Assembly: GCA_007376445.1 (NCBI GenBank)
Contig: VMGF01000001.1
Coordinates: forward strand, 188,203 to 252,202
Direction: 5' to 3'
Source of the DNA: Parcubacteria group bacterium Gr01-1014_3
GTDB lineage: Bacteria > Patescibacteriota > Minisyncoccia > UBA6257 > WO2-44-18
Length of the DNA: 64,000 nt
Made by a program: the position numbers and the translations under genes. Each line of letters begins with the position of its first letter. Position 1 is the stretch's first letter. This document shows positions 24,501 to 47,879 of the stretch, piece by piece. The notes beneath the pieces are model-generated. The model made no database searches and was not told where the DNA came from. It worked only from the letters and a program-made list of their open reading frames with translations.

Positions 24501-25040
24501 AACGATCTTATAAAGTTTTTTCAAAAGTCCGCGCTTATTGATCTCGCCAAAAACCCACCACAAAGTTTCGACATAAGAATTCGCGTAGGTAACGTAAGCG
24601 GTATCAAAATCCAGCCAGAGACCGACCCGCTCGGTTAATTTTTCCCACTCGCTTTTATATTTCCAAACTGAATTTTTGGCCTTGGCGTTGAATTCGGCGA
24701 TGCCGAATTTTTCTATCTCGGATTTATTTTTGATGCCGAGTTCTTTTTCCACTTCCAACTCTACCGGCAAACCGTGAGTATCCCAGCCGGCGCGGCGTAG
24801 CACATAGTGCCCGCGCATAGTTTTATAGCGCAAAATGATATCTTTGAAAGCGCGGGTCAGCACGTGGTGCGTCCCCGGGCGGCCGTTAGCCGTCGGCGGC
24901 CCTTCAAAAAACCTGAAAGGTTTTTTGCCCTGAGTCCGCCGAAGGGCTAAAGACTTCTTAAAAATGTCGTTCTCCTTCCAAAATTTGAGGATCTTCTCCT
25001 CGATCTCCGAAAGAATAAGCTGCTTTAATCCACGCAACAT
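21504..25040 (-). CDS. ileS: isoleucyl-tRNA synthetase (type 2) carrying an inserted histidine-phosphatase (PGAM-like) domain
   Basis: GPPTANGRPGTHH (HIGH-class), KMSKSKGN, editing domain, WHYPFENK; 1178 aa with RHCESNHN ... LIVSHG insert between TPLPIW and DVHRPFIDE. Confidence 0.9.
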   Translation of the reverse strand: MLRGLKQLILSEIEEKILKFWKENDIFKKSLALRRTQGKKPFRFFEGPPTANGRPGTHHVLTRAFKDIILRYKTMRGHYVLRRAGWDTHGLPVELEVEKELGIKNKSEIEKFGIAEFNAKAKNSVWKYKSEWEKLTERVGLWLDFDTAYVTYANSYVETLWWVFGEINKRGLLKKLYKIVPWCPRCQTPLSSHELGQPGAYKKVKDPSVYVKFALKGEKNTYLLVWTTTPWTLPANMAVAVDPKLTYTKYKAGNEFFWSYSNPPSVEVDGKKIEVEVVEKISGKKLVGKKYEPLFPHKDLKGAEGVYEVLPADFISTEDGTGLVHIAPAFGEDDLNLFREHAKGENWQESIVVTIDDRGMVQKGLPGAGKFVKEADKDIIADLTGRKLLYSASSIEHEYPHCWRCSTPLIYFARNSWFIEMSKLKSELLAANKKINWTPEHLKEGRFGEWLKDIKDWAIARQRYWGTPLPIWEHSGKAAEKCEKRIVIGGLADLDKHALSANQFFIARHCESNHNVKDFVASGPEKGDNISKLTEKGEKDAEKLGKELKKENIDLIFASPYFRTMQTAKIIAKATGAKVIKDKRLSEVNAGIFNGRPVKDHTGFYANFAERFIKTPPNGENYSQIRARMMEAVREINGQHSGKNILIVSHGDPLWVMEGALAGVSAEETEKMPYPKTGDYRKITVHNWPFDRNGELDVHRPFIDEVALKCPDCEEKMDRVKEVADVWFDSGAMPYAQWHYPFENKNLLDKGEQFPADYICEAIDQTRGWFYTLLAVATLLKKDTPYKNVISLGLLLDKHGQKMSKSKGNVVDPHQLIQKYGADVLRWYFYTVNDPGEPKRFDENDLGKVLRKFFLILYNSFVFWDSYADKSATTLEISKLNVLDQWVLARLEEVTHKVTTDLENFQIGPAARELESFIDDLSRWHIRRSRKRFQNPGSDFKGASATLAKVLTEMSRLIAPFAPFFGEAMWQSLNPESRIKNQELNKKHNSSFMIRNSVHLQDWPELNKTLFNKDILAAMAEVRNLASLGLAAREKAGIKIRQPLQKLKIKNFKFKINDELLYILADEVNVKEVVVDSKIKEEVELDTEITAELKREGLVREMVRAVQGLRQEAGYKLGEPIFLMLEVPPEVREAIEESEAEFKKDISAKTIDFKRSDKFDAEITTKLNGVDIWIGVRK

Positions 25041-25147
25041 AATATCCTTGATGATATATAAAATTTAAGCGTATTTCAACCGCCCTTATGGACTTTACGA
25101 GCCTTAGACTTTAAAATAGCCTTTGTACTTTAAAAGGAGCAAAAACG

Positions 25148-25903
25148 GTGAAACAGATAATCGCGGCCTTCCTGATCTTCGCGATTCCGAAAATAGCCTA
25201 CGCCCAAGAAGATTTTTCGATGTCCGGCGAAGCCAGGGTTAAGCAGTTCGTAGTCATGGATGAACCTGATCTGATGAAGATGGACTATTCAAGCTACGAC
25301 TCTACGCCGGATCAAGAAGTAGGTCTGTCGGGTCATTTCCACTTCTGGAGAAAGCTTCACCTCGATGCTTATCCATATTTCTGGTATTCACAAGAAAACA
25401 AGATCGCCCGCGTCGGACTTTTCGGAGAATTTCATTATGATCTCTGGGGCGACTGGCTAGATGTTGGCTTTGGCCACCACAGCTGGCACAACGCCGACGA
25501 ACATTCTCCGAGCGAAAGCGGTCGGAGCCAGAACTGGTTTTCCATGGAATTGAATTTCTGGAATATCAGTCTCGGCGGCGAGAACCATCTCGATCTTTTC
25601 CTGAAGCCGCTTTACTATGTTCAGAACGCCGAACCCGCAGAGCTTAAAACTATTTACGACGGCGATGAATCGGCCGCTTACGCCAAAATCAGCCTGGGCG
25701 CGAAGCTAAACTATGGCAGTCTGGATCTTCAACTCTGGCCCTATGCGGAATTTTCTGATGGTCCCGACCGCTACGGCCTCAAAGCGGAAATATCCTATCC
25801 GCTCTACCGAGGATTCTCCGCTTTCGGTGATCTCCACTATTTCACCATCGACAACGAAGACCGCTGGATGATCGGAATTGGCATAATTATTAGATTTAAA
25901 TAA
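25148..25903 (+). CDS. secreted hypothetical protein (signal peptide, W/Y/D-rich beta-type)
   Basis: GTG start after AAGGAG; MKQIIAAFLIFAIPKIAYAQE signal. Confidence 0.5.
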   Translation: MKQIIAAFLIFAIPKIAYAQEDFSMSGEARVKQFVVMDEPDLMKMDYSSYDSTPDQEVGLSGHFHFWRKLHLDAYPYFWYSQENKIARVGLFGEFHYDLWGDWLDVGFGHHSWHNADEHSPSESGRSQNWFSMELNFWNISLGGENHLDLFLKPLYYVQNAEPAELKTIYDGDESAAYAKISLGAKLNYGSLDLQLWPYAEFSDGPDRYGLKAEISYPLYRGFSAFGDLHYFTIDNEDRWMIGIGIIIRFK

Positions 25904-25907
25904 AACC

Positions 25908-25937
25908 AAAACCGCCCAAATGGGCGGTTTTTTTATC
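25908..25937 (+). terminator. hairpin aaaccgcccaaatgggcggttttttt
   Basis: 7-bp GC stem + T7 run. Confidence 0.7.
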
Positions 25938-26013
25938 TACGCACGAATCGACTTAAGTCGATTCTTTGCGGGATTCCGTCGCCGCTATTTTAAAATAAAT
26001 AATTGAGGCGACT

Positions 26014-27591
26014 TCACATTTTCTCCGGGGCGGAAATGCCAAGCAAACCAAAAACTTGTTTGAGTACTTTTTCCGTGGCTGCCATAAGAGCCAGGCGGGA
26101 TTGAATTACTTTTCCTTTTTCATCGATCACGCGCTCTTTTTCATAAAAATTGTGCACAGCTCGCGCGATTTCGAGAGCATAGCGAGCCACGCGGCTCACC
26201 TGATAATCGCTGGCGGTCTGCTGGATCATATAGTCATATTTTCCGAGGATCTGAAGCAGTTGCACCTCGGAATCAGCGGAAACATCCGCCAGAGCCGCCA
26301 TTTTCGGCTTCACTCCCGCTTTTTCTAAGATACTCACCGCCCGCACATAGGCGTACTGCGTGTAAAACACCGGATTCTTCGATGACTGCTCTTTCGCCAA
26401 ACCAAGATCGAAATCCATATGCGTATCCGGTGAATGCATCAGGAAAAAGAACCGGGCCACATCTTTGCCGACTTCTTTAATAAGTTCGTCCATCGTCACA
26501 AACTCGCCTTTCCGCTTGGACATCTTCACTTCTTCGCCATTTTCTATCAGGCGAACCAGCTGGGTGATGATTATTTTCAATCTTTCCGGATCCACACCCA
26601 GCGCCTCCACGCCAGACTTCAACCGAGCCACATAGCCATGGTGATCCGCGCCCCAGATGTTGGCGGAGATATCGAATCCGCGTTTTATAAACTTGTCGTA
26701 GTGATAAGCGAGATCGGCTAAGAAATAAGTTGGCTTGCCGTCCGATTTAACTAAGACGCGGTCTTTGTCGTCAGCGATGCCTTCCGTTTTGAGCCAGACG
26801 GCGCCATCGTGTTCGGCCACCAGCTTTTTTGATTTCAAAAATTCCAGAGTTTTTGGGAGTTCTTTTCTCTGATGAAGATTCTTTTGTTCGGAAAACCAAA
26901 CATCAAAGCTGATCCCGGCGTTTTTCACCGATTGTTTAATTTCTTTCAATAATTCCCCCGCCGCCAGCTGGCCGATCTTCAGCGCGTCATCGGTTTTGAT
27001 TTTTGGCTGGATTTTTCGCGCGAGCGTCAGCACATAGGCGCCTTTGTAGTGCTCTTCCTTCGGTTCAGCCTTGCCGATCGCCGCTAAAATACTTTCGCCA
27101 AGCACCCGTACCTGATTGCCAGCGTCATTTATATAGTATTCCCGAGTTACCTTATTACCGACTGCTTCCAAGATATTCGCCAGCGCGTCTCCCAAGAAAC
27201 CGCCACGGCCGTTGGCCATCGTGAGCGGGCCGGTCGGATTGGCGGAGATAAATTCTAAGCAAATTTTTTGCTTACCCTTCGTAGCTTTACGCGAAGAAGG
27301 GAATTTTAAGATGCTTTGCAGTTCCGCGGCGAGCACTTTGGCCGATATCCAGAAATTCACATAACCCGGCGCCACCGCTTCTATTTTTTGAAATATTTTT
27401 TCTTCGTCAGCGGCCCTGATTTTGTCAGCCAGTTTTTTAGCGGCCTCGATCGGCGGAGTTTTCCATTCTTTCGCCAGCAAAAAAGCCGCGCTAGTCGAAT
27501 AATGGCCGTATTCCACGCGGTCGGTCATCATCACCTGGCCCACTTCCCGGCCAAGCGCCTTCGTAACTATGTTCTGGATCTTATTAATCAT
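26014..27591 (-). CDS. argS: arginyl-tRNA synthetase (degenerate HIGH: TMAN)
   Basis: N-terminal Arg-tRNA-synthetase domain, SANPTGPLTMANGRGG, KMSKRKG, DALR anticodon-binding tail FYTQYAYVR. Confidence 0.85.
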   Translation of the reverse strand: MINKIQNIVTKALGREVGQVMMTDRVEYGHYSTSAAFLLAKEWKTPPIEAAKKLADKIRAADEEKIFQKIEAVAPGYVNFWISAKVLAAELQSILKFPSSRKATKGKQKICLEFISANPTGPLTMANGRGGFLGDALANILEAVGNKVTREYYINDAGNQVRVLGESILAAIGKAEPKEEHYKGAYVLTLARKIQPKIKTDDALKIGQLAAGELLKEIKQSVKNAGISFDVWFSEQKNLHQRKELPKTLEFLKSKKLVAEHDGAVWLKTEGIADDKDRVLVKSDGKPTYFLADLAYHYDKFIKRGFDISANIWGADHHGYVARLKSGVEALGVDPERLKIIITQLVRLIENGEEVKMSKRKGEFVTMDELIKEVGKDVARFFFLMHSPDTHMDFDLGLAKEQSSKNPVFYTQYAYVRAVSILEKAGVKPKMAALADVSADSEVQLLQILGKYDYMIQQTASDYQVSRVARYALEIARAVHNFYEKERVIDEKGKVIQSRLALMAATEKVLKQVFGLLGISAPEKM

Positions 27592-27643
27592 GATTTTTAG
27601 CTTTCTTTGGTCTTCGTTGCTCTTAGTGTACTATAATTAACCA

Positions 27644-28087
27644 ATGAGCTTAATAGTAGAAAATAGTAAGGCTTACTTCAACTATGAGATTCTCGAAAAA
27701 TACGAAGCGGGAGTTGAATTGAAGGGGTATGAAGTGAAAGCAGTTAAAGCCGGCCGGGCTCATTTGGCCGGAGCTTTCGCGACCGTCAAAGATAATCAGA
27801 TCTGGCTCACCAACGCCGACATCCAGCCATATCAGCCGAAAAACACCCCCGCCGGCTATGACCATACCCGCCCCCGCCGCCTCCTCTTAAATAGGAAGGA
27901 AATTAACTATCTGATCAGCAAGATGAAGTCCGATAAGTTGACAATAGTGCCTTTAAAGTTGTATAATAAAGGCGGTCGGATCAAGATTGAGCTCGGTTTA
28001 GCTCGCGGCAAGAAGCAATACGAAAAGCGCGAGAAGATCAAAAAACGAGAAGTTCAACGCGAGATCCGGCGCACGTTAAAATCGTAA
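27644..28087 (+). CDS. smpB: SsrA-binding protein SmpB
   Basis: YFNYEILEKYEAGVELKGYEVKA...; Lys/Arg-rich C-tail. Confidence 0.9.
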   Translation: MSLIVENSKAYFNYEILEKYEAGVELKGYEVKAVKAGRAHLAGAFATVKDNQIWLTNADIQPYQPKNTPAGYDHTRPRRLLLNRKEINYLISKMKSDKLTIVPLKLYNKGGRIKIELGLARGKKQYEKREKIKKREVQREIRRTLKS

Positions 28088-28157
28088 CTACGCCAATATA
28101 CTAATCAAGCACTGATATACGAATTCGTATATTCGCGCTATATTCGTATATTAGTGA
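28088..28157. repeat. MITE-like repeat, copy A of a 3-member family (TIR CACTAATATAC / GTATATTRGYG)
   Basis: Reverse-complement similarity to 49234-49325 and 60626-60700; internal ATATACGAATTCGTATAT palindrome. Confidence 0.55.
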
Positions 28158-28165
28158 AGTTTTAG

Positions 28166-28480
28166 GGGGATGAAAGGCCTCGACGAAGACTTTTCTTTAA
28201 TAATCGCAAGCCGAGCTGAACTCGCTCGTAAAACCGGTTCAAAATCTTAATTGCTAACCAAAAATTAGCTTTAGCCTACGCGTAATAGCGTTTGCTCATC
28301 GGCGGCTTGATGTCCTATCGGGTCATCACCGGTGTTATATCTAGGACTTAAGAAATGCTCTCGTGATTCCGGGATCATTTACGAAAACCAATGAATCATT
28401 CGTTCTGATTTATCAGATCTAAGCTTGTAGAAGTTATTACTGAAAATTTTCGGATGTCGGTTCAACTCCGACCATCTCCA
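28166..28480 (+). ncRNA. ssrA: tmRNA (ssrA), tag reading frame (A)NQKLALAYA
   Basis: 5' GGGGAUGAAAGGCCUCGACG and 3' GGAUGUCGGUUCAACUCCGACCAUCUCCA resemble the E. coli tmRNA ends; acceptor GGGGAUG/CAUCUCC; in-frame gct aac caa aaa tta gct tta gcc tac gcg taa; lies immediately after smpB. Confidence 0.75.
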
Positions 28481-28490
28481 CTACTTCGCA

Positions 28491-28530
28491 AAACAAAATT
28501 CCCCCGCTTTGGGGGAATTTTGTTTTGACA
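28491..28530 (+). terminator. hairpin aaaattcccccgctttgggggaatttt + T-run
   Basis: 11-bp stem. Confidence 0.7.
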
Positions 28531-28581
28531 TATTTGTATTTATATGTATAATGATGGCGTACTTTGAAAGGAGGCTACTTT

Positions 28582-28992
28582 ATGGCATGCAATGACAGCG
28601 GGCAGGGCGGACCTGGGAAATGCGAAAAGCGGCATATTAATGAAGCCACGATTGAACAATTGCGCGCCGTGATAAAGAATCGCCTGAAAAGAAAGGTCAA
28701 AAACGAAGAACTTCGCCTCGCAAACGAAGCGAAGGCAATGTTCAAAAAGGGAATTATCGCTGGTTATGTTCAAACCGCCCTCTCTGCCGCAGAAAAGGTT
28801 TCACCTAGACTCGTTATCAACTTCGTGGCTGCCGAAAAGAATCGGACAGAGAGTCTTCAATGGAAGCGTAGTGAGCTTGAAAGCAAGCTGACTAAGTGGT
28901 TGAGCGACTGCGATCCTTTCCCTTTGAAGATGAAATTCAAACTACAGAGAACTCTGGGCCGCTACTTCCTGATCAGCTGGCATCAGCATTAA
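28582..28992 (+). CDS. hypothetical protein
   Basis: ATG after GAAAGGAGG; TTGACA-N16-TATAAT promoter at 28525-28552; 136 aa. Confidence 0.45.
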   Translation: MACNDSGQGGPGKCEKRHINEATIEQLRAVIKNRLKRKVKNEELRLANEAKAMFKKGIIAGYVQTALSAAEKVSPRLVINFVAAEKNRTESLQWKRSELESKLTKWLSDCDPFPLKMKFKLQRTLGRYFLISWHQH

Positions 28993-29060
28993 AAAAATTA
29001 AATCCCCGCTTAACGGCGGGGATTTTGACTTTTCCGGCCTATTCTGTTAAATTTGAAGCT

Positions 29061-29564
29061 ATCGCAAATATCCGAATCAACAATCAAATAACGGCTCCAG
29101 AGGTGCGAGTTACCGACGAAATGGCTCAGTTCATTGGCGTAATGCCGATAGCAGGGGCCTTGAAGCTGGCGAAAGAGAAAGGGATGGATCTCATCGAGAT
29201 CGCTCCCACCGCCAAGCCGCCGGTAGTCCGCGTCATGAGCTTCGATAAATTCCGCTATCAGCAGGAGAAGAAGAGAAAGAAGGAGCGCTCCCAGCAGAAA
29301 GTACAGGAATTGAAGCAGATCCAGATCAGCCCGCGCGAAGCTCTCCACGACCTTCAGGTAAAGATGAAAAAGATCGAGGAATTCCTCGCCGAAGGGCATC
29401 AGATCACGATCATCATGGTTTTGAGGGGCCGGGAAAAGGGAAATAAAGATTACGCGATGGGTAAATTAAAAGATTTCGCGAAGATGATCCCAGTTGAATT
29501 CAAAGTGATCATGGAGCCGAAGATCGGCGGACGCGGCATCGCGATGCTAATAACTAAAAAATAG
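29061..29564 (+). CDS. infC: translation initiation factor IF-3 (non-ATG start; exact start uncertain, 29046-29088)
   Basis: IRINNQITAPEVRV... with IF3 N- and C-domain pattern; a terminator hairpin at 29000-29030 excludes the longer track ORF; no in-frame ATG, consistent with infC's usual AUU/AUC-type start. Confidence 0.75.
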   Translation: MANIRINNQITAPEVRVTDEMAQFIGVMPIAGALKLAKEKGMDLIEIAPTAKPPVVRVMSFDKFRYQQEKKRKKERSQQKVQELKQIQISPREALHDLQVKMKKIEEFLAEGHQITIIMVLRGREKGNKDYAMGKLKDFAKMIPVEFKVIMEPKIGGRGIAMLITKK

Positions 29565-29597
29565 TTCGATAAACTCACTATAAATAAAAAAAATAAA

Positions 29598-29774
29598 ATG
29601 GCAAAAAAATCAGTTACAACTCGAATCAGAATCACCCGAACCGGCAAAATGATCCGGCGTAGAATGGGCGCTAATCACTTCCTCGCCAAAAAGACGGGGA
29701 AGCAGATCAGCAATAAAAAGAACCAAGCCGTCATCGCGGCGGTAGATCTCCGCGCCTTGCAAAGATACCGGTAA
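29598..29774 (+). CDS. rpmI: ribosomal protein L35
   Basis: MAKKSVTTRIRITRTGKMIRRRMGANHFLAKKTGKQ...; 58 aa; missing from the ORF track because under 60 aa. Confidence 0.85.
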   Translation: MAKKSVTTRIRITRTGKMIRRRMGANHFLAKKTGKQISNKKNQAVIAAVDLRALQRYR

Positions 29775-29799
29775 ACGAGTACAATATCTCAATTAACCA

Positions 29800-30144
29800 A
29801 TGACCAGAGTCAAACGAGGCGTAGTTGCCCACAAAAAAAGAGAGCGCCGGTTGAAAGCCACTAAAGGCTATCGCTGGGGCCGCAGCACCAAAGAGAAGGC
29901 CGCTAAAGAAGCGCTTACTCATGCTTATACCCACATGTTCCGTGGCCGCAAGGAAAGGAAGCGTGATTTCCGCGCCCTTTGGAATGTGAAGATCAACGCG
30001 GCTATCCGCCCGCTCGGCATGAACTACAATCAGTTCATCTCCGCTCTCAAAAAGAAGAGCATTAAGTTAGATCGTAAGATATTGGCCCATATGGCCGAGT
30101 TCGAACCAAAAGTCTTCGGCAAAGTAGTGGAAGCAGTGAAATAG
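29800..30144 (+). CDS. rplT: ribosomal protein L20
   Basis: MTRVKRGVVAHKKRERRLKATKGYRWGRS... Confidence 0.9.
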   Translation: MTRVKRGVVAHKKRERRLKATKGYRWGRSTKEKAAKEALTHAYTHMFRGRKERKRDFRALWNVKINAAIRPLGMNYNQFISALKKKSIKLDRKILAHMAEFEPKVFGKVVEAVK

Positions 30145-30162
30145 TTCGGCAAAGCTCACTAC

Positions 30163-30200
30163 AAGTAAAAAACCCCGACTTATGTCGGGGTTTTGGTTTT
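30163..30200. terminator. bidirectional hairpin aaaaccccgacttatgtcggggtttt
   Basis: 8-bp stem. Confidence 0.65.
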
Positions 30201-30602: not shown

Positions 30603-30658
30603 AGAACGACAACATTATACAACACAATAAATAAAAGTACAAATTCGAAACCGGAATC

Positions 30659-31135: not shown

Positions 31136-31163
31136 ATTATTTTAGAATTTTACCACGGAATGA

Positions 31164-31192
31164 ATCACCCCGCTATTTACGGGGTGATGTTA
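31164..31192. terminator. hairpin atcaccccgctatttacggggtgat
   Basis: 9-bp stem. Confidence 0.5.
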
Positions 31193-31833: not shown

Positions 31834-31852
31834 TGAGCGTTCCTAGAATATA

Positions 31853-33610
31853 CTACTTTTTCAAGAAACTCAACATCTTCTCTACTGGCCAGGCATTGAT
31901 GATGTCTTTTTTCTCCGCCCAGCCGCGGCGAGCCTGGGCGATGCCATATTCGATAGAAGAGAAATGATTAGCGGTATGCGAATCGGAATCGATCGCCATC
32001 TTCACTCCGGCTTCCACGCATTTCTTGATATATTCGTCTTTAAGATCAGCCCGCTCCGAGGCGTTGATCTCTAGTATAGTACCCGTTTCTTTAGCGACTT
32101 TAATGATCTCATCCATATCTACCGCGTAAGGTTCGCGGCGCTGGAGGATGCGGCCAGTCGGATGGAAAAGAATATCCACGTTCGGATTCCGCATCGCCCG
32201 GACAATACGCGCGGTCTGTTCTTTTTGCGGGAGATTAAAGAGCGAATGTACTGACGCGCCAACCACATCCAACTTCGACAAAATCGAATCCGGCAGATCC
32301 ATTGAGCCGTCCTTCAAAATATCGCATTCACTACCCTTCAAAATTCTTAGTTTTAAGTTTTTAGTTTTTAGTTTTAAGTTTAATGCGTCGATCTCTGCCA
32401 TTTGCTTCAGGATCCGTTTTTCATCCAAGCCATTGGTCATCGCTAGTCGCTTAGTGTGATCCGTAATGGCGATATATTCCAAGCCATCCTTAATTGCCGC
32501 TTCCGCCATCTCTTCGATCGAATTTTCGCCATCGGTCCAGTTGGTCTGAATTTGAAGGTCGCCTTTTATCTCGCCGTATTTGATAAGTTTCGGCAGTCCG
32601 TTGGGTTTACCCTGAGCTTGTCGAAGGGAGGCCTCAATCTCACCCGTCATCTCCCGCATCTCCGGTTCGATATAGTCCATTCCCAACGCCTCATAGATCT
32701 CCTCTTCGGTCTTTCCGGCTATCAGCTTCCCTCGCTTCTCGGCGGTGCCTTTAAAAAGGCCGTATTCGCTCAGAGTTAAGCCTTTTTTGATGGCGATCTG
32801 CCGGAGCGCGACATTGTGGGTTTTAGAACCGGTAAAATAATTTAAAGCTGCTCCATAGGACTCCTCAGGCAAAACCCGCAGATCGGCATTCATGCCATTT
32901 CTTAATTTAACTGACGATTTGGTATCTCCATGCGCTAAAACCTTCAAAACTTCCGGCATCGCCACAAAATAATCCATGATTTCCTTGGGCTTGTCAGAAA
33001 TCACTAAAAAATCAGCGTCGCCAATAGTTTCTTTGCGCCGGCGCGTCGATCCCGCCACCTCAACTCGTTTCACATTATTTAAACCTCTTAGTCGATTCTG
33101 TATTTGTCGGATTCCCGGCATTACGGAACCGATCAAAAATCTCCCGCCGAAGCTTTTAGCAAATCCAATACCCTTTAATATATTTTCCTCGCTCTTCGGA
33201 CCGAAACCGGCTAACTTGCCGATCTTTCCAGCTTTCGCCGCCTTTTCCAGGTCAGCCATATCTTTGATGCCAAGTTTTTGATAAAGCTTTTTAATCCCCT
33301 TTGGTCCAAGTCCTTCTATTTTGGAAAGTTCCGATAAATTAACCGGAGTTTTCTTTTTAAGCTGGTCATAATATTTCAGCTTGCCAGTTTTTAAAAGCTC
33401 TTCGATCTTTTCCGCGATCGACAAACCGACACCCTGAATCTCTTCCACGGCTTTCAGTCCGCCTTTTTTGTAAATTTCCAAAACCGGCTCTTCCAAAGAC
33501 TCGATCACTTGAGCGACTTTCTCATAAGCGCGCGGCTTAAAAGGCACCTCTTGCATCTCTAAGTACTCGCCAACTTCGTATAGAATTTTGGCAATCGAAT
33601 TATTATCCAT
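31853..33610 (-). CDS. polX: family X DNA polymerase with C-terminal PHP domain
   Basis: Pol-beta-like N-terminus with HhH, nucleotidyltransferase motif, C-terminal ITDHT...PHP pattern; contains an in-frame AAGTTTT-repeat insert. Confidence 0.8.
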   Translation of the reverse strand: MDNNSIAKILYEVGEYLEMQEVPFKPRAYEKVAQVIESLEEPVLEIYKKGGLKAVEEIQGVGLSIAEKIEELLKTGKLKYYDQLKKKTPVNLSELSKIEGLGPKGIKKLYQKLGIKDMADLEKAAKAGKIGKLAGFGPKSEENILKGIGFAKSFGGRFLIGSVMPGIRQIQNRLRGLNNVKRVEVAGSTRRRKETIGDADFLVISDKPKEIMDYFVAMPEVLKVLAHGDTKSSVKLRNGMNADLRVLPEESYGAALNYFTGSKTHNVALRQIAIKKGLTLSEYGLFKGTAEKRGKLIAGKTEEEIYEALGMDYIEPEMREMTGEIEASLRQAQGKPNGLPKLIKYGEIKGDLQIQTNWTDGENSIEEMAEAAIKDGLEYIAITDHTKRLAMTNGLDEKRILKQMAEIDALNLKLKTKNLKLRILKGSECDILKDGSMDLPDSILSKLDVVGASVHSLFNLPQKEQTARIVRAMRNPNVDILFHPTGRILQRREPYAVDMDEIIKVAKETGTILEINASERADLKDEYIKKCVEAGVKMAIDSDSHTANHFSSIEYGIAQARRGWAEKKDIINAWPVEKMLSFLKK

Positions 33611-40198: not shown

Positions 40199-40200
40199 AT

Positions 40201-41595
40201 CTAAATTATATCATACGAATCCCCCTGGGCTGGAATCTCCACGCTCACCGCGAGATCATCAACCAGCTTCTGCTTTAAGCCAGTTTGATTGTCCGATTCG
40301 CCGTGCGTCAGAAAAACTTTCTTAACTTTCTGCCGAATCGGACCTAGCCACTCTAAAAGCTGGGGCTGGTCGGCATGAGCGGAATAACCGCCGATGGTTT
40401 TGATCTGGCATCGCACCGCGATTTTCTCGCCAAATATAGAAACTTCCTTTTCACCGTTCAAGAGCCGCCGCCCTAGCGTGCCTTCGGCCTGATAGCCGAT
40501 AATCAGCAGGGAATTATTTGGATCGGAAAGATATAGCTTTTCATGATGCAAGATCCGGCCGGCATTAGACATGCCCGCGCCGGCGATGATCACTTTCGGC
40601 GGTGGAACTTTATTAATATGTTTCGATTCCTCGGTAGTCAGGGTCATTCTCAAGCCAGGGAATTTAAAAAGCTCGTCGCCGGACTTCATCTGTTTCATCG
40701 AAGCCGCGTCCCAATATTTATGATGGCGGTTATAAACTTCGGTCAGCTTGATGGCGAGCGGACTATCCAGATAAATCGGTATCTTGGGAATCCGGTCATT
40801 TTCTACCAGCTCGTTCAATTCATATAGAAGCTCTTGGGTGCGCTCCATCGCGAAAGCCGGAATCATCAATATTCCCTTCCGCCGCACGGTATCTTCGATC
40901 ATGTCTTCCAGCACACTTTTCCTTTCCACCATCGGTTCATGAACTCGATTGCCGTAAGTTGATTCAATGACGCAATAATCCACGTCTTCCGGCGGATCCT
41001 GGCGTTTACCGATGATCGGCGCTGGAGAGTTGCCAAGATCTCCGGAGAAAAGAATTTTTATTGCTTGCCCTGAGCCCGTCGAAGGGGCCTCTATAATTAC
41101 AAAAGCGGAGCCCAAAATATGACCGGCGTTATAAAAGGTGACGGTAAATTTCCCAACCTTGGTCGGCTGGAGATATTCGGCGGTCTGCCAGCGAGTCATC
41201 AGCTCCTCTACCTCGCGGATTCCATAGAGATACGGCATTTGAAACCGCTCGGCCGCTTCGATTAGGATATGCTCAGAATCCAAAAGTAAAAGATTTCCGA
41301 AATCTTTGGCTGGCGGAGTGGAAAGAACAGTTCCACGAAAACCATCCCTATAAAGCTTGGGAAGCAAACCGATATGATCCACGTGCGGATGCGTCACGAT
41401 CACCGCGGAAATTTCTTTCGGGTTATACGGAAATGGATCGAAGTTGTGCTTCTCCACGAAACTGCTGCCTTGATGAAGACCGCAATCAATCAAAATCTTT
41501 TCTGGCCCTGAGCCCGTCGAAGGGTCGCCGTCCAGCTCAAGTAAATAATTGGATCCTGTAACTTGCTGTGCCGCCCCGTGAAATGTAAGTTTCAT
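40201..41595 (-). CDS. MBL-fold beta-CASP RNA-metabolising hydrolase, with two 21-nt (7-aa PSTGSG) insertions
   Basis: VTHPHVDHIGLLP metal motif; DPSTGSGP and APSTGSGQ are encoded by copies of the dispersed motif. Confidence 0.7.
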   Translation of the reverse strand: MKLTFHGAAQQVTGSNYLLELDGDPSTGSGPEKILIDCGLHQGSSFVEKHNFDPFPYNPKEISAVIVTHPHVDHIGLLPKLYRDGFRGTVLSTPPAKDFGNLLLLDSEHILIEAAERFQMPYLYGIREVEELMTRWQTAEYLQPTKVGKFTVTFYNAGHILGSAFVIIEAPSTGSGQAIKILFSGDLGNSPAPIIGKRQDPPEDVDYCVIESTYGNRVHEPMVERKSVLEDMIEDTVRRKGILMIPAFAMERTQELLYELNELVENDRIPKIPIYLDSPLAIKLTEVYNRHHKYWDAASMKQMKSGDELFKFPGLRMTLTTEESKHINKVPPPKVIIAGAGMSNAGRILHHEKLYLSDPNNSLLIIGYQAEGTLGRRLLNGEKEVSIFGEKIAVRCQIKTIGGYSAHADQPQLLEWLGPIRQKVKKVFLTHGESDNQTGLKQKLVDDLAVSVEIPAQGDSYDII

Positions 41596-41722
41596 CCCGT
41601 TAGAGGCAGACTGCCATTAGGCAGTCGTACTTTGGCCGTTTATTTTTAGTCGACATATTAATTGTATATACCATAGCATTATACATTGAATTCTTATTGC
41701 CTCTAACGGGATTTCATTCCAT

Positions 41723-42952: not shown

Positions 42953-42958
42953 GGTAAA

Positions 42959-43540
42959 TTAACCCTTCGTTTTCTTCAAGGCTTCTTTCAGGCGATCTTT
43001 GAAACCGGAAATAGCCGGATCGATCTTAGAGATGGCGATCTTGGCTTGCTGGCGGGAATAGCCAAGGCTAGCGAGAGTTTCTTCGAGCTCTACATCCGAC
43101 TCCATCAGACTCAAGGCTTGGCGGGATTCCGGACCTTCTATGCTTAGTTTTCCTTTAAGATCCAAAACTACCCGCTCGGCGGTCTTTTTACCTACGCCCG
43201 AAGCGCGGGTGAGCAGTTCCACTTTGCCGCCATTGATCGCCGCCACCAGCTGATCGATCTTGGTGACGCTCAAAATGCCGAGAGCCGACTTTGGACCGAC
43301 GCCGTTAACCGAGATCAGCCTCTCAAAAAGCCGTAATTCCGCTTCGCTAGCGAAGCCATAAAGATCCAGGCCGTCTTGCTTGAGGTTTAGATAAGAAAAA
43401 ACTTTGACCTGACTGCCTATCGGTGGTAAACTTTGGGCGACATTTTCGGCGACAAACAGCTTGTAGCCAACTCCTCCCGCTTCAACCACGATGAGGTTTT
43501 CCCGCTTCAAGCTGAGGGTCCCGGAAACCGAATAAATCAT
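42959..43540 (-). CDS. ruvA: Holliday-junction helicase subunit RuvA
   Basis: MIYSVSGTL...VGYKLFV OB domain, HhH pairs, C-terminal domain III. Confidence 0.85.
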   Translation of the reverse strand: MIYSVSGTLSLKRENLIVVEAGGVGYKLFVAENVAQSLPPIGSQVKVFSYLNLKQDGLDLYGFASEAELRLFERLISVNGVGPKSALGILSVTKIDQLVAAINGGKVELLTRASGVGKKTAERVVLDLKGKLSIEGPESRQALSLMESDVELEETLASLGYSRQQAKIAISKIDPAISGFKDRLKEALKKTKG

Positions 43541-43561
43541 ACTTTCAGTATACTATGACAA

Positions 43562-45385
43562 ATGACAAACGACATGTTCAAACTAGTCTCAAGTTTTAAA
43601 CCAAAAGGCGACCAGCCGCAGGCGATAGAAAAGCTGGTCAACGGCATCGACACCGGTCATATAAACCAGGTGCTTTTGGGCGTGACCGGCTCCGGCAAGA
43701 CTTTCACGATGGCCTCGGTCATCGAAAAAGTCGGCCAGCCGACCCTGATCATCTCACCAAATAAGATCCTGGCCGCCCAGCTTTACCAGGAATTTAAGCA
43801 GTTCTTCCCGCACAACGCCGTGCATTATTTCGTATCTTACTACGACTATTACCAGCCGGAAGCCTTCATTCCGCAAACCAATACATATATACAGAAGGAC
43901 GCGCGCATCAACGCCGAGATCGATAAGCTCCGACATGCCGCCATTCAGAGCGTGCTTTCTAGAAAAGACACCATCGTCATCGCTTCGGTGTCTTGTATTT
44001 ACGGCATCGGCGACCCGGATGAATATAGCCGCGCTCGGCTGGAGCTTAATGTTGGTCAAACCCTTGCCACCTCCGATCTCTTCCGCCATTTAAACTTCCT
44101 TCAATATATGAGAAACGACGCGGACTCTAAGCTCGGCGAATTTTCCGTGAGCGGCAATAAAATTAAAATTCATCTGGTCACTGATGAGATTATCGAGATA
44201 GTTGTCGAAAAAAAGAAGGTTGCTTCAATCAAAAAAATCGTCGACGTGAATTCTTCAAGCCCTATACCCTATACGTTAAACGCTATTCAGATCTTTCCAG
44301 CCAAATTCTGGGTCACTCCGCAAAATAAAATGAGGCTGGCTCTTCAAAATATCCGGACCGAGATGGATGAGCGCGTGGAAGAATTGCAATCCGCCGGAAA
44401 ATTCGAAGAAGCCGAGCGTATTGAAAAGCGGACTATGTTCGACTTGGAAATGCTGGAAAAGAAAGGCCATATCAACGGCATCGAAAATTATTCTCGTCAT
44501 ATGGGATTCCGAAAACCAGGTGAGCCGCCGATGACCCTGATCGATTATTTCCCGAAACCGTTTTTGTTATTTATCGACGAATCTCACATCACGATGCCCC
44601 AGCTAAACGCGATGTCGGCTGGCGATCGTCAGCGCAAAGGCACCCTGGTTGATTATGGTTTCCGCCTGCCATCAGCCATCGACAACCGGCCATTAAGATT
44701 TGATGAATTCAGATCGAAAGTCGGCCAGGTCATTCATGTCTCCGCCACACCAGGTCCATATGAAATGGAGATCAGCCAGCAAACTGCCGAACAGATGGTC
44801 AGGCCAACGGGTATTTTAGACCCGGAGATCCGCATCAGCCCGGCCAAAGAGCAGGTGAAGCATTTGCTGACGGAAATTCAAAAACGCATTAAAAGTAATG
44901 AGCGCGTGCTGGCTTTGACTTTGACCAAGCGCTCCGCTGAAGATCTGACCGAATACCTTTTACAAAATGGCATTAAAACAAAATATCTGCACTCGGATAT
45001 TAAAACGCTGAAGCGGCCGGAAATTTTGTCGGCTTTGCGCCGAGGCGAGATCGATGTGCTCGTCGGCGTGAACTTGCTCCGCGAAGGCTTGGACTTGCCG
45101 GAGGTTAGCTTGGTCGCGATCTTAGACGCGGACCGGGAAGGATTTTTGCGAAACTATCGTGGACTGATCCAGATGGCCGGCCGCGCGGCCCGATCCATCA
45201 ACGGCCAGGTAATCTTGTACGCCGACCTAATGACCGACTCTATTAAAAAGACTATCTCGGAAACTGTGCGCCGACGGCAGATCCAGATCAAGTTCAATAA
45301 AAAAATCGGCATGGTGCCGACTGCTTTGAATAAGCCGATTATGGAAGATCGGCTGACTCAGCTTTCGAATTTAGACGCGGAATAG
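43562..45385 (+). CDS. uvrB: excinuclease ABC subunit B (C-terminally short)
   Basis: GVTGSGKTFTMA, YVSYYDYYQPEA, helicase motifs; 607 aa. Confidence 0.9.
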   Translation: MTNDMFKLVSSFKPKGDQPQAIEKLVNGIDTGHINQVLLGVTGSGKTFTMASVIEKVGQPTLIISPNKILAAQLYQEFKQFFPHNAVHYFVSYYDYYQPEAFIPQTNTYIQKDARINAEIDKLRHAAIQSVLSRKDTIVIASVSCIYGIGDPDEYSRARLELNVGQTLATSDLFRHLNFLQYMRNDADSKLGEFSVSGNKIKIHLVTDEIIEIVVEKKKVASIKKIVDVNSSSPIPYTLNAIQIFPAKFWVTPQNKMRLALQNIRTEMDERVEELQSAGKFEEAERIEKRTMFDLEMLEKKGHINGIENYSRHMGFRKPGEPPMTLIDYFPKPFLLFIDESHITMPQLNAMSAGDRQRKGTLVDYGFRLPSAIDNRPLRFDEFRSKVGQVIHVSATPGPYEMEISQQTAEQMVRPTGILDPEIRISPAKEQVKHLLTEIQKRIKSNERVLALTLTKRSAEDLTEYLLQNGIKTKYLHSDIKTLKRPEILSALRRGEIDVLVGVNLLREGLDLPEVSLVAILDADREGFLRNYRGLIQMAGRAARSINGQVILYADLMTDSIKKTISETVRRRQIQIKFNKKIGMVPTALNKPIMEDRLTQLSNLDAE

Positions 45386-45418
45386 AAAAGGCCCGCTTTT
45401 TAAGCGGGCCTTTTTGCT
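45386..45418. terminator. hairpin aaaaggcccgctttttaagcgggcctttttgc
   Basis: 9-bp stem + T-run, bidirectional. Confidence 0.7.
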
Positions 45419-45725
45419 ACTTGGGCTGGAGCTGATCAAGGATCTTGTTCTGCGCGCACTCGAACATTAGCTCCAGAGATTCCGCATTGACGACCTGGAC
45501 ACCGCAGTTCCCATAGGATCGGGAAGGAAGGACGTCGGTCTTGTACTTCTTCAGATCCATTCCGTGACTCTTCGCAAACGTCTCGACCGTCCCTTGTAGG
45601 GCGGCCTCGATGGTTTCGAAGGAGAGAACCTTCCCGGACTCTGCGTCCCTCAGAACATCCTCCCATCCTCCGCGAGGTCCTTCGTCGTAGTCCGGATACG
45701 TGAAAGCGAAAACGATGAGTCGCAT
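45417..45725 (-). CDS. hypothetical protein in a GC-rich islet
   Basis: 102-aa ORF with GC-rich codon usage unlike its neighbours. Confidence 0.4.
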   Translation of the reverse strand: MRLIVFAFTYPDYDEGPRGGWEDVLRDAESGKVLSFETIEAALQGTVETFAKSHGMDLKKYKTDVLPSRSYGNCGVQVVNAESLELMFECAQNKILDQLQPK

Positions 45726-45859
45726 CTGAACCCTCCATGAAAATGTAGTGAGTCTTGTGTTGAAACATTCAACGTTCTGCTTGGATTATAGCATAGTCTT
45801 ATTGTTCTGTCAAGGCACTTGCCCTTAGCCTGTTTTGCGTGTATTCTGTACTTACTTAC

Positions 45860-46102
45860 ATGCCAGTCACACGCTCAGCTAAAAAAGCCTTACGACAAAC
45901 CAAGCGCCGCCACGAGCGGAATGTTGTGGTAGCCAGGGCTTTGAAAGATGCCATCAAAAAGTATAAAAAAGCTCCAGCCGCTGATCTTCTTTCCTTAGTT
46001 TTTCAGAAATTAGATAAAGCCGCGAAAGTTAATGTCATTAAAAAGAACACCGCTTCCCGTTTAAAGTCCCGCCTTTCCAAACACTTAAACCCTAAACGCT
46101 AA
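45860..46102 (+). CDS. rpsT: ribosomal protein S20
   Basis: MPVTRSAKKALRQTKRRHERN... Confidence 0.8.
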   Translation: MPVTRSAKKALRQTKRRHERNVVVARALKDAIKKYKKAPAADLLSLVFQKLDKAAKVNVIKKNTASRLKSRLSKHLNPKR

Positions 46103-46872
46103 CCGCTAATCGCTAGTTCCAAAAGGGCTTCCTCATAATCAAGTTTTCCAGACTTAATGGCCGCATCATAATCGGCCATTTGTCTTTTTTGGATCACATC
46201 CGCCTGCGAAGCGATCATATTAAAAACTTTCGCCGCGTCTTCAAAATTCAGCAAAGCCTCCAGCGCCGGCAAACGATATCGGGCCTCGCCGACTCTTTTT
46301 ACTTTCATAAGAAGATCAAAAAAGTTCCCCCGCTCAAAATGTTCCTCCAATTTGCCGCCGAGAGCTAACTTATCTAAATCAGTCACGATCCCCCAGAGAT
46401 TTGAACCATGCATTCCTAGTAAATTCTCCGCGACGCCTTTATCCAGCGCAAGTTTCCGATTAGTTGCCTCTTTTTTAATGAAAGACAGAATTTCCGCCAT
46501 CGTCGGCTCCTCGAATACCTCCACCGCGAAAGATTGCTTGAGTAGAAAATCAAATTCTTTAGTTAACTTTTTGTCCTCGGAGATTATTAAAGTAATTTCT
46601 TTAGTTTCTAAAATAGATTTCAAAATTGGGATCAGCTCCTTGCCATCATATTCCGAAACATTATCCAAAACTCCTAGCTTAGCCTTTACGAATAAAGACT
46701 GACTGGTCGAAAAGTCCTTGAGCTTGCTCAAGTCCTCCGAAGCCTTGGCGGAGGAGGATAAATCAAAGCTACTAATAGTCAGCCCGGAGTGCTTTTCCCG
46801 GAATTTATTCAGATACCAGTTTAATTTTTGCCTACGCCGATAGGAGTCTGGGCCGTATAAATATAGAATCAT
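46099..46872 (-). CDS. holA: DNA polymerase III delta subunit-like
   Basis: MILYLYGPDSY N-terminus and helical C-domain; weak. Confidence 0.45.
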   Translation of the reverse strand: MILYLYGPDSYRRRQKLNWYLNKFREKHSGLTISSFDLSSSAKASEDLSKLKDFSTSQSLFVKAKLGVLDNVSEYDGKELIPILKSILETKEITLIISEDKKLTKEFDFLLKQSFAVEVFEEPTMAEILSFIKKEATNRKLALDKGVAENLLGMHGSNLWGIVTDLDKLALGGKLEEHFERGNFFDLLMKVKRVGEARYRLPALEALLNFEDAAKVFNMIASQADVIQKRQMADYDAAIKSGKLDYEEALLELAISG

Positions 46873-46946
46873 GAATCAAGAATTATGAATTAAGGATAAC
46901 GCTTTTGAGTTTTTCGTTCCATGATTCTTAATTCTTTATTCCTAAT

Positions 46947-47879
46947 TCACGCTTTTTGGCACTTTGGGCAGAAATGCGCGGAACGGCCGCCCATACTAAC
47001 CCGCTTAATTTTCGTCTTACAGCGGAAACAGGGCTCGCCTCCTCGCTGATAAACCAGAAGCTCATTGCCATATTTGCCCTTCATCCCGTCCGTATCACGG
47101 AAATCGCTAGTGGAAGTCCCTCGGAGTTTCAGGGCGCGGGGCAAAATTTTTCGCGTCGCCCTGTATAAGTTTTTAAGTTGGGAAGTTGTAAGTTTATAAG
47201 TTGGTGTCAGGGGGTAAACTTTAGCGAGCCACAATATCTCATTAGCGTAGATGTTGCCAATACCAGCAATAACCTGCTGATCCATTAAAACCTGATAGAT
47301 TTTCTTGCCCTGAGCTTGCCGAAGGGTGGCTCCAAATTTCTCAACTGTAAGATTCGGATCCAGCGCGTCGGGCCCGAGATTCGTCAGCTCTGGCAGATTC
47401 TCGATTTCTTGGACAGAACCGGCAATGACCTTCGCGAATTTCCGCAGATCAGAAAGGGCGAGCATCTTCCCATTATCAAGATATAAAATAAGATGCACGT
47501 ATTTATTATAAGGGTCGGTTATCATAGCCTTCGGTTCCAGTGGAATAACTTCCTGATTCTTGATTCCTGATTCTTTATTCTTGATTCGCCATTTCCCCAC
47601 CAGCATATGCCCGGTCATTTTTTGGTGGACCAAAAGCAGTTTGTCGTGAGTTAAGTAAATTAAAATGTTTTTCGCGCGACGCTTCGCTTCAACGATCTTC
47701 TCGCCCGTCAAAAATTTTTCAAAAACAGCGACGTGCTTATGGGCCACTTTATTTTTGCTCTGATCCAGCGGGTCCTTTATCATCTTCGGCCAATCAAACC
47801 ACGCGCCGGTGATCTTCCGGCCAACTACTTTTTTGTTTAAGTCGTTAACAACCGTTTGTACCTCTGGAAGTTCCGGCAT
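46947..47879 (-). CDS. mutM: formamidopyrimidine-DNA glycosylase
   Basis: MPELPEV N-terminus, H2TH, C-terminal zinc finger CFRC...CPKC; contains two in-frame simple-repeat segments plus one dispersed-motif copy. Confidence 0.85.
   Translation of the reverse strand: MPELPEVQTVVNDLNKKVVGRKITGAWFDWPKMIKDPLDQSKNKVAHKHVAVFEKFLTGEKIVEAKRRAKNILIYLTHDKLLLVHQKMTGHMLVGKWRIKNKESGIKNQEVIPLEPKAMITDPYNKYVHLILYLDNGKMLALSDLRKFAKVIAGSVQEIENLPELTNLGPDALDPNLTVEKFGATLRQAQGKKIYQVLMDQQVIAGIGNIYANEILWLAKVYPLTPTYKLTTSQLKNLYRATRKILPRALKLRGTSTSDFRDTDGMKGKYGNELLVYQRGGEPCFRCKTKIKRVSMGGRSAHFCPKCQKA

Follow-up and report, generated by a model that had tools for sequence, protein, structure and literature searches.

A probable mobile hairpin repeat, tied to a tRNA-linked GIY-YIG element, in frame within housekeeping genes of a Patescibacteria genome

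How does a sequence of about 23 nt come to recur, each time in frame, inside unrelated housekeeping genes of a streamlined bacterial genome, and why is the same sequence met directly behind tRNA genes? The question is raised by a 64-kb stretch of DNA (64,000 nt) from Parcubacteria group bacterium Gr01-1014_3, a member of the Patescibacteria or candidate phyla radiation (CPR); this whole stretch is the window referred to below, and it was the ground covered by the census of repeat copies. The reading preferred here, to which a probability of roughly 0.6 can be attached, is that the sequence is a mobile hairpin repeat, akin to repetitive extragenic palindromic (REP) sequences and to Rickettsia palindromic elements (RPEs), that belongs to a family of elements with a gene for a very small GIY-YIG protein.

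With the consensus CCCTTCGRCRRGCTCAGGGCAAG and up to three mismatches the window yields seven matches, where 100 dinucleotide-preserving shuffles give an expectation of 0.00. An eighth copy, at 9749-9763 on the forward strand, is recovered with a 15-nt core at up to one mismatch, and a ninth, degenerate and interrupted, lies at 9681-9724. The consensus for the window is CNCTTCGRCRRGCTCAGNG(YAAR), with eight copies in 64 kb and none expected by chance. The excess of a dispersed motif over chance, remarked on in a preliminary description of this DNA, is thus upheld, and the sites listed there are the right ones, though their coordinates were shifted by 1-4 nt. Five of the eight copies are inside intact open reading frames (ORFs) of four housekeeping genes and a sixth is inside the 3′ end of a GIY-YIG ORF. 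Five host genes had been supposed; by Pfam there are four, encoding isoleucyl-tRNA synthetase (IleRS), PolX, a beta-CASP metallo-beta-lactamase (MBL) hydrolase with two copies, and Fpg. The copies found by pattern search in these genes are all on the reverse strand: at 24924-24946 in ileS (ORF 21504-25040; ALRRTQGK), at 32606-32628 in polX (ORF 31853-33610; LRQAQG), at 41502-41524 (site A, DPSTGSGP) and 41064-41086 (site B, PSTGSGQ) in the MBL gene (ORF 40201-41595), and at 47304-47326 in fpg (ORF 46947-47879; ATLRQAQGK). The reading frames are as first given, LRQAQGK in fpg and polX, LRRTQGK in ileS and PSTGSGP or PSTGSGQ in the MBL gene. Intragenic density is about one copy per 13 kb in the window and about one per 60-250 kb elsewhere, and the Gr01-1014_3 genome may have experienced a burst of the repeat.

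The tRNA-linked copies abut tRNA-Arg(GCG) and tRNA-Ser(GCT), each starting precisely at the 3′ end of its tRNA, as had been described, and behind tRNA-Ser a complete element can be read on the reverse strand. The tRNA-Ser gene (10239-10330; ARAGORN, Rfam tRNA model 57 bits) ends in 18 nt, 10256-10239 (GAATCTCTCCCTCACCGC), that constitute the left direct repeat. From the tRNA 3′ end runs a left-end copy of the repeat with a stem of the CAC/GTG type (10217-10239, CACTTCGGCAAGCTCAGTGCAAG), followed by three tandem 59-nt units (10040-10216) and by a GIY-YIG nuclease gene of 99 codons (9720-10019, ATG at 10019 and stop codon at 9722-9720; Pfam PF01541, E = 2.7e-13). Two further copies are on the forward strand, reversed with respect to this gene. 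One, internal, is in the 3′ end of the gene (9747-9765, ACTTCGATAAGCTCAGT, from the core search), and a reverse copy of the repeat supplies the codons for the C-terminal CTELIEV. The other is the distal right-end repeat, of the CCC/GGG type (9681-9724), recognized by reading the sequence against the consensus of right ends from 36 loci; it is interrupted by a nested degenerate repeat, takes in the stop codon of the GIY-YIG gene and is directly adjacent to the right direct repeat. The latter (9664-9681, reverse strand) reproduces without mismatch the final 18 nt of tRNA-Ser, which extend from T-loop G57 through the base that follows the discriminator. Between the direct repeats the element measures 557 bp (10238-9682), with the 99-aa GIY-YIG frame as its sole ORF. 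The earlier picture of a gene flanked on both sides by copies at 9699-9719 and 9747-9765 does not hold, since the second is inside the 3′ end of the ORF and the first is just downstream of it.

The 59-bp repeat of the preliminary description is real: Tandem Repeats Finder reports it at 10039-10227 with a period of 59, 3.2 copies and 98% matches. Each unit consists of the ends of the 23-nt repeat, CACTTCGG...CTCAGTGCAAG, with some 36 nt nested in the loop, among them a reverse motif-like segment, CTTGTAGTGAGCAAGGCCGAACTAC; the RNA fold has an energy of -13.7 kcal/mol (z = -2.0). Behind tRNA-Arg(GCG) (6023-6094, forward strand; ARAGORN and Rfam) a repeat copy at 6094-6116, CACTTCGACAAGCTCAGTGCGAG, found by pattern search and reading of the sequence, is accompanied by one 59-nt unit (together 6094-6175, forward strand), with neither a GIY-YIG gene nor a duplication of the tRNA end. 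At its gathering threshold Rfam detects only tRNAs and tmRNA in the window and has no match for the motif or the 59-nt unit. The 3′ ends of tRNA-Leu(CAG) (17250), tRNA-Arg(CCG) (35720) and tmRNA (28481) lack an encoded CCA and have the native trailers CAC, CAC and CT, in the contexts GCA-CAC-AACTG, GCA-CAC-TTTATT and CCA-C-TACTTCG. As the first three bases of the left repeat (CAC) overlap this native pattern, the exact left boundary of the element is ambiguous by 1-3 nt. Two independent assemblies of the same organism that cover the region around 8900-10000 of the window (L289 and L290, found via the neighboring CDO_I protein) break in or beside the GIY-YIG/59-bp-repeat element, which is the behavior expected of multi-copy or tandem-repeat DNA.

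The same arrangement is widespread. A one-genome-per-species scan gave 301 relatives of the GIY-YIG protein, and 80 loci of these, whose titles name Levy-, Pacei-, Jorgensen-, Roizman-, Gottesman-, Woese-, Collier- and Saccharibacteria among others, are the basis of the cassette counts. In about 75 of the 80, inverted copies of the repeat bracket a GIY-YIG gene of around 95 codons, the forward copy, (C)ACTTCGGCAAGCTCAGTGCAAGC, being 40-50 bp upstream of the ATG in about 75 loci and reverse copies being at +253/+256 in most and at about +295 in many. The proposed link between the motif and a small GIY-YIG/59-bp-repeat element is thereby supported, with the repeat as both ends of the element in many lineages of Patescibacteria. 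The protein, of 95-99 aa, is a catalytic domain with a short C-terminal tail and without a separate DNA-binding domain; Y5, Y15, G17, R25, H29 and E61 are invariant in 48 sequences, and NCBIfam has no model that matches it. Its conserved C-terminus, GYNxCTELVEVL, is encoded by the reverse repeat copy, and mis-called N-terminal extensions such as ALRQAQCKH or TSASSGQAK are the upstream forward copy in translation. The best homologues of the window protein are 86-87% identical, versus 70% for the MBL hydrolase and 81% for Fpg in the same database, which is suggestive of horizontal spread of the GIY-YIG gene.

A co-oriented tRNA gene ends exactly where the repeat starts in 45 of these loci, and 12 tRNA types are represented (Asn, two Gln, two Glu, Tyr, four Ser, Arg and Lys). 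In 37 of the 45 the last 16-19 nt of the tRNA, mostly 18, are duplicated directly after the distal reverse repeat, the duplicated segment extending from T-loop G57 (GTTC|GAATCC...) to the base after the discriminator, and the direct repeats are spaced 326-706 bp apart (median about 364 bp). The element, with imperfect inverted repeats at its termini, generally measures about 330-410 bp from one duplication to the other. The right-hand copy of the tRNA end is followed by CA in 11 of 36 loci, the largest single group, and then reads as an encoded CCA end; in these 11 loci the tRNA itself is followed by ACTTCGG. An integrase att site carried by the element was considered and rejected: the direct repeat matches the local tRNA, of 12 different types, and so behaves as a target duplication. 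Among 40 cases, only 15 GIY-YIG proteins share the tRNA type with their nearest neighbor, which implies that the cassette has moved repeatedly between tRNA genes with a new duplication each time. In 661 kb of other Patescibacteria loci (those collected around the MBL gene) the repeat is missing behind all 36 tRNAs, which means that it does not belong to tRNA genes, or to tRNA processing, in general. Tandem arrays of 23-24-nt repeats occur at L159 (five copies) and L128 (three copies), and the loop of the repeat is interrupted by foreign sequence in the 59-nt unit, in the copy at 9681-9724, and in L162 and L200. From these nested insertions, together with the start of the duplication within the T-loop, loops appear to be preferred points of insertion. 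Mimicry of a T-arm by the right junction was also considered and was rejected as the base-pairing is only partial.

Solo copies inside genes are of the type whose stem is CCC/GGG and whose 3′ extension is GGGTAAAC(C) or GGGCAAG, which corresponds to the reverse complement of the right-end repeat of the cassette. Site A of the MBL gene provides the clearest view of how one arrived. A homologous locus with 86% DNA identity, L203, has the empty site ...TTGGACGG|AGAAAAG..., and relative to this clean empty site the window carries an insertion of exactly 24 nt, CGACCCTTCGACGGGCTCAGGGCC, with no target duplication, so that presence or absence of this solo copy is polymorphic between relatives (loci L001 and L002 are identical to the window and provide no polymorphism). 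In other MBL homologues the same beta-turn holds the repeat, but the junction codons differ and the net gain is 7 or 8 aa; some homologues have decayed remnants and most lack it altogether. At site B the window has APSTGSGQAI, compared with AEGK in most homologues, and the insertions are patchy among homologues at both loops. In an AlphaFold2 model of the protein (pLDDT 86.5) each insert occupies a beta-hairpin turn, and the blocks containing the two inserts have mean pLDDT values lowered to 66 and 76. That the MBL copies are insertions relative to homologues had been proposed and is correct, most cleanly for the 24-nt difference at site A; the uniform 7 aa, or 21 nt, that went with the proposal is not.

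The two MBL loops have received other DNA as well. In L203 itself (754-869) site B is occupied in frame by an unrelated palindromic repeat of about 100 nt, GTCATTGCGAGGAGCGAAGCGACGAAGCAATC ... GATTGCCACG...ACTCGCAATGAC, encoding VIARSEATKQS...IATSA...TRNDG, so that at least two families of repeats have invaded the same loop in sister lineages; a literature search on the peptides of this longer repeat gave chance matches only. The MBL homologue of L213 (6001-7437) has a 38-aa Ala/Lys-rich insert at site A. PolX is comparable. Its insert adds 6 aa after GEIEA(A/S) in the linker that joins the polymerase domain to the PHP domain; neither Thermus PolX nor any of 150 representative homologues has it. 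One homologue, P0364, has a long low-complexity or repetitive insert after GEIEAA, RIISPQSQIRSTAVYLPQVQRKIRSTAVYLPP.... The insert loops of PolX and of the MBL hydrolase look like general sinks for inserted DNA. The 26 nt CCCTTCGACAAGCTCAGGGTAAACCC of the window polX recur identically in a Mur-ligase-like ORF (putative, by sequence resemblance) of L206.

In ileS and fpg the copies overlay native residues, as had been suspected. ALRRTQGK of IleRS aligns to ENR--KGG of the Thermus enzyme with a net gain of 2 aa, and the fpg copy has 15 codons in place of about 14 native ones, a net gain of one. The IleRS of the window (21504-25040, reverse strand; 1178 aa) has in addition a His_Phos_1 domain (E = 1.7e-35) inserted in the middle of the synthetase at residues 505-677. 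Net changes in gene length thus range over +24 (MBL site A), about +18-21, +18 (PolX), +6 (ileS) and +3 (fpg) nt, and the fixed 21-nt unit of the preliminary description has to be given up. Surviving solo copies keep the reading frame, occupy beta-turns or linkers, and specify unremarkable peptides such as PSTGSGQ and LRQAQGK.

Changes that vary in size and yet are all multiples of three invite the thought that the solo copies are excision footprints, a full element having inserted in each gene and then left, with only those repeat-derived scars surviving that preserve the frame. Partial replacement of target codons would be expected of imprecise excision followed by repair, and the sequence at these sites does match the right end of the element. 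Each solo copy is, however, one complete unit with stem and loop intact, neither a composite of both element ends nor a junction between left and right ends, and at none of the intragenic sites is there a duplication of 17-18 bp or a tRNA-like remnant, which argues against simple footprints. Full elements sit at tRNA ends or tRNA-like remnants, and about 1.3 Mb of Patescibacteria loci contain none within a protein-coding gene. Excision is accordingly an improbable source of the solo copies.

What is conserved in the repeat is seen best when all copies are considered together. The unit of about 23 nt has a covarying stem of 4-5 bp, a conserved 11-nt loop, TCGRCRRGCTC, and then YAAR. When contigs of the IMG/VR database were scanned with CNCTTCGRCRRGCTCAGNG, the two free positions were Watson-Crick paired in 113 among the 140 matches listed (C-G 88, A-T 15, G-C 8, T-A 2). 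In 302 copies of the loop TTCGRCRRGCTCA from all loci collected, the three pairs that flank the loop are Watson-Crick in 95%, 87% and 94%, with C-G, A-T, G-C and T-A represented and compensatory types at each position, and pairing is at background level past the fourth pair. The isolated hairpin reaches only about -3 kcal/mol, no better than shuffled sequence; given this weakness, the covariation more likely reflects recognition by a protein, of a hairpin, a cruciform or a dyad, than a self-stabilizing RNA. A stable hairpin or terminator was rejected on the same fold energy.

The conservation is of DNA. One frame of the same nucleotides gives LRQAQGK or LRRTQGK and a second gives PSTGSGQ; read from the opposite strand they provide the CTELVEV at the C-terminus of the GIY-YIG protein, and they are present in untranslated tRNA trailers. 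The Fpg genes of the window and of three orthologues with 68-73% protein identity share the motif codons (A/G)CC CTT CGR CAR GCT CAG GGY; orthologues whose proteins are 66-73% identical to that of the window retain CCCTTCGRCARGCTCAGGG while the codons of equally conserved flanking residues vary freely. At MBL site A the motif core has no mismatches in L212, L214, L217 and L231, despite protein identities of 55-60% and diverged synonymous sites on either side. These comparisons answer a doubt voiced at the outset, whether orthologues would use the same nucleotides or merely encode a protein motif convergently, in favor of a nucleotide-level repeat; on present comparisons selection appears to act on the nucleotides and not on the protein.

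Such conservation, maintained across orthologues and across genomes of very different GC content, with a constant loop and a covarying stem and with placement exactly at tRNA 3′ ends, could also be expected of a functional cis-element that has spread and been kept for host benefit, its mobility being secondary: a hairpin that helps to process or stabilize tRNA 3′ trailers, a protein-binding site or a DNA-uptake signal. In Patescibacteria loci the copies within ORFs of more than 250 aa are co-oriented with the gene by 15:1, a ratio in which many copies are orthologous and so not independent, but in the wider set of IMG/VR contigs (GC 32-73%) same and opposite orientations number 47:34. Related genes differ in the presence of the repeat and their function is evidently kept either way, the sites are arbitrary surface loops of unrelated proteins, the hairpin is weak, and the absence of the motif behind all 36 tRNAs of the MBL loci is not what a trailer signal would predict. 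One copy per 13 kb in the window, or per 60-250 kb in relatives, is far below the density of known uptake signals, and a DNA-uptake signal was rejected since both density and cross-phylum distribution are wrong for it. Benefit to the host thus has a slim chance of being the main explanation.

Fpg presents a different complication. In P0242, its closest relative (81% identity), KYADFKKRILKKSQ stands in place of the window's TVEKFGATLRQAQGK, yet many more distant Parcubacteria Fpg proteins have (L/F)TxEKFK-xALRQAQGKKIKQ at the same position; relatives of 66-73% identity possess the patch and the nearest, of 75-81%, lack it. It looks like a replacement patch and may be moving by recombination. 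It can then be asked if the whole distribution is mainly due to homologous recombination, with a few ancient insertions per gene shared as short allelic patches and no ongoing transposition of the 23-nt unit. In Fpg the motif does travel as part of a wider patch that co-varies with it, (L/F)TxEKFK-xALRQAQGK, many MBL and Fpg orthologues have the repeat at one and the same site, and recombinational spread in Fpg is real. At MBL site A, on the other hand, the indel is exact and has no diverged patch around it, and at the same loop the position and length of the insert differ between lineages (+7 or +8 aa, with junction codons that vary). None of the 150 representatives shares the PolX copy, the repeat is present in unrelated genes, as exemplified by the 26 nt shared with the Mur-ligase-like ORF of L206, and a mechanism for the original insertion would still be required. 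As an account of the whole, recombination is quite improbable.

Convergent encoding of a peptide, or an artefact of assembly, is refuted: although LRQAQGK resembles what is native to Fpg at that place (KLRKSTKKIK in L. lactis), the DNA is translated in more than one frame and from either strand, occurs in non-coding trailers and has fixed codons while flanking ones drift, and an identical contig in independent ENA (ERZ27284378:k139_87659) and Logan assemblies, the exact Fpg protein in NCBI (100% identity, Gr01-1014_3) and orthologous copies in many unrelated samples mean that no single data set's assembly is responsible.

If the repeat is a mobile hairpin of the GIY-YIG element family, how might it move? 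The T-loop TTCGAAT and the repeat loop TTCGRCAAGCTCA both start with TTCG directly after the 5′ strand of their stems. The GIY-YIG nuclease might recognize hairpin loops of this stem-TTCG... kind and nick DNA there, in the T-loop of a tRNA gene or in the repeat's own loop, after which host repair would install the cassette or a single repeat unit, sometimes at the expense of a few target codons. Right-end-type copies (CCCTTCGRCRRGCTCAGGG-YAAR) would in this way be inserted or patched into protein-coding genes, and homologous recombination would also carry motif-bearing patches from one orthologue to another. Insertion that is repair-mediated or templated, rather than precise cut-and-paste, is suggested by the variable net lengths and partial replacement of codons. 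Being immediately after a tRNA 3′ end, the nuclease gene is placed for read-through from the tRNA promoter, and the position may provide it with both a strong promoter and a safe harbor. That the GIY-YIG protein is the mobilizing enzyme is suggested by co-location and is held tentatively, at somewhat less than even odds.

Several considerations weigh against the preferred reading. Co-location is the only pointer to a role for the GIY-YIG protein, and a 95-aa catalytic domain without a DNA-binding domain is unlikely to be a complete transposase. The weakness of the isolated hairpin counts here too, as do the varying net length changes of the solo copies and the lack of a target duplication at MBL site A, which is the sole solo copy with an empty site for comparison. 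The flanks TxEKFK co-vary with the motif in Fpg, and recurrence at orthologous sites could be partly due to old insertions under nucleotide-level selection or to allelic transfer of patches. Around GIY-YIG loci solo copies show no enrichment, their density of about one per 250 kb being similar to that of MBL loci. The motif is also abundant in IMG/VR contigs of 32-73% GC with no GIY-YIG gene of this subfamily nearby: phmmer and a family hidden Markov model found no GIY-YIG relative among all ORFs of 120 motif-bearing IMG/VR loci (1.1 Mb of flanks). Some other enzyme, or none, may spread the repeat in those organisms. A scan of viral contigs for the GIY-YIG family gave one weak relative. The motif is, then, not private to this element or this genome. 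Tandem arrays of the CCC type with a period of 21-23 nt, for example CCCTTCGACAAGCTCAGGGACCG in three copies, are present in the IMG/VR loci L121 (3219-4081) and L102 (4638-7902), on contigs classed as viral and with GC far from that of Patescibacteria.

The remaining difficulty concerns the tRNA ends, as around 30 GIY-YIG loci lack an intact tRNA directly upstream. Their right flank is a well-formed tRNA 3′ end, and their left flank is a degenerate sequence that looks like one. The degenerate flank, 30 nt upstream of the left repeat in L139, L140, L145, L149, L160, L171, L181, L183, L187, L196 and others, has the form GTTC[GT]AA...GGAGCA or GGGTCA and is often 5-11 nt longer than a real tRNA end, the right copy being well formed. 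In L183 and L187 the right flank is identical to that of a real tRNA 1-2 kb upstream, and in L149 it differs by one inserted base. Integration by homology, secondary rearrangement or nested insertions would fit such loci. L172 has a duplication of 165 bp with 94% identity that comprises the last 17 nt of a tRNA and 147 nt of downstream flank (1121-1284 and 4323-4485), for which homologous or Campbell-type integration fits better than a staggered cut; the duplication brackets about 3 kb that end with the GIY-YIG cassette. From the tRNA-less loci and L172 it follows that a simple staggered-cut model does not explain every locus.

A more ambitious joint reading, doubtful at present, would see in the GIY-YIG protein of about 95 aa and its 23-nt hairpin ends a hitherto unrecognized kind of transposable element of bacteria that, with a length of about 0.35 kb, would fall below every known autonomous insertion sequence (IS) in size. 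It would insert at the hairpin loops of structured RNAs, the tRNA T-loop and possibly rRNA stem-loops, with a duplication of 17-18 bp, and its single-hairpin derivatives would be mobilized in trans and colonize coding sequence in frame, while the same loop sequence would be kept up across bacterial phyla and their phages.

If the reading as a mobile hairpin repeat is true, selfish DNA can colonize coding sequence without destroying the host gene, and the most reduced bacterial genomes, nearly without intergenic space, still support selfish repeats within essential genes. Peptides such as PSTSSGQ, LRQAQGK, FDKLRA and LSLSKG in metagenomic proteins would be explained as DNA-level insertions and not as features of the proteins, with a bearing on annotation, alignment-based phylogeny and structure prediction. 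A minimal GIY-YIG nuclease together with a 23-nt hairpin would be a candidate for a hairpin-loop-directed system of DNA insertion and a possible tool, and the unexplained GIY-YIG insertion sequences of CPR rRNA genes would be tied to a broader family of elements.

How does all this compare with what is known? Text searches of the literature, with incomplete coverage, returned only chance matches for the peptide strings of the motif and no paper for its DNA strings, so that an earlier description is possible. Williams is said to have defined, in 2002, a T-loop sublocation for integrase-borne genomic islands at tRNA genes. The present elements are like such islands in that the direct repeat extends from the T-loop to the tRNA 3′ end and the tRNA is intact on one side, but they are only about 0.35-0.55 kb long, the one in the window has no integrase (its only ORF is the 99-aa GIY-YIG frame), and the direct repeat is the end of whichever of 12 types of tRNA is local. 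DNA uptake sequences (DUS or USS) occur about once per kb in both orientations and are lineage-specific, unlike a motif found about once per 13 kb here and over a GC range of 32-73%.

With GIY-YIG homing endonuclease genes (I-TevI, T4 Seg) the cassettes share the GIY-YIG domain with its catalytic Tyr, Tyr, Arg, His and Glu intact, and the habit of a small selfish cassette in or beside conserved structural-RNA genes. They differ in that the protein has 95-99 aa and no separate DNA-binding domain, in having terminal inverted repeats and a duplication of 17-18 bp, which are not produced by double-strand-break-repair homing, and in targeting tRNA 3′ ends; dispersed solo repeats are not described for homing genes. 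The nearest published observation found concerns insertion sequences, not introns, that encode GIY-YIG proteins and reside in rRNA genes of CPR bacteria; most rRNA insertion sequences are placed by the same paper at the tops or bases of stem-loops (PMC11270868). No terminal repeats, tRNA association or dispersed solo copies are described in it, and neither the window nor the compared loci include an rRNA gene.

With MITEs (miniature inverted-repeat transposable elements), non-coding units of about 50-500 bp between terminal inverted repeats, the match is poor, the solo copies being single 23-nt units with terminal inverted repeats confined to the full GIY-YIG cassette, and MBL site A having no target duplication whereas the full cassette has one of 17-18 bp. 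Closer are the RPEs of Rickettsia, also selfish palindromic repeats lodged in frame at surface or permissive regions of housekeeping genes. RPEs are, however, about 100-150 bp long, are restricted to Rickettsia and relatives and have no known enzyme gene, whereas the present repeat of about 23 nt is distributed much more widely and is tied to a tRNA-linked GIY-YIG cassette.

REP sequences, their paired form REPIN and the REP-associated tyrosine transposases (RAYTs) of Pseudomonas and E. coli offer the other close parallel, with short palindromic repeats of 20-40 bp having a conserved sequence and a stem, many solo copies alongside one or a few small nuclease or transposase genes flanked by inverted repeats, and nested and clustered arrangements. 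As a short imperfect palindrome in many copies the present repeat is comparable (23 nt, a stem of 4-5 bp, eight copies in the window and 302 overall). Yet the gene it flanks is of the GIY-YIG family (PF01541) and not an HUH/Y1 transposase of the IS200/IS605 kind; no transposase-like gene is among the window ORFs examined, though no systematic screen for RAYTs was made. REPs are extragenic and lineage-specific, whereas copies here are inside coding sequence, lack a GTAG or CGTC tag and span genomes of very different GC content. The repeat can thus be regarded as resembling REP/REPIN-RAYT systems in its logic and Rickettsia RPEs in its outcome, while failing defining features of both. It is unusual in its extreme brevity, in its in-frame residence within essential genes of a streamlined genome, and in a loop that is common to very different genomes.

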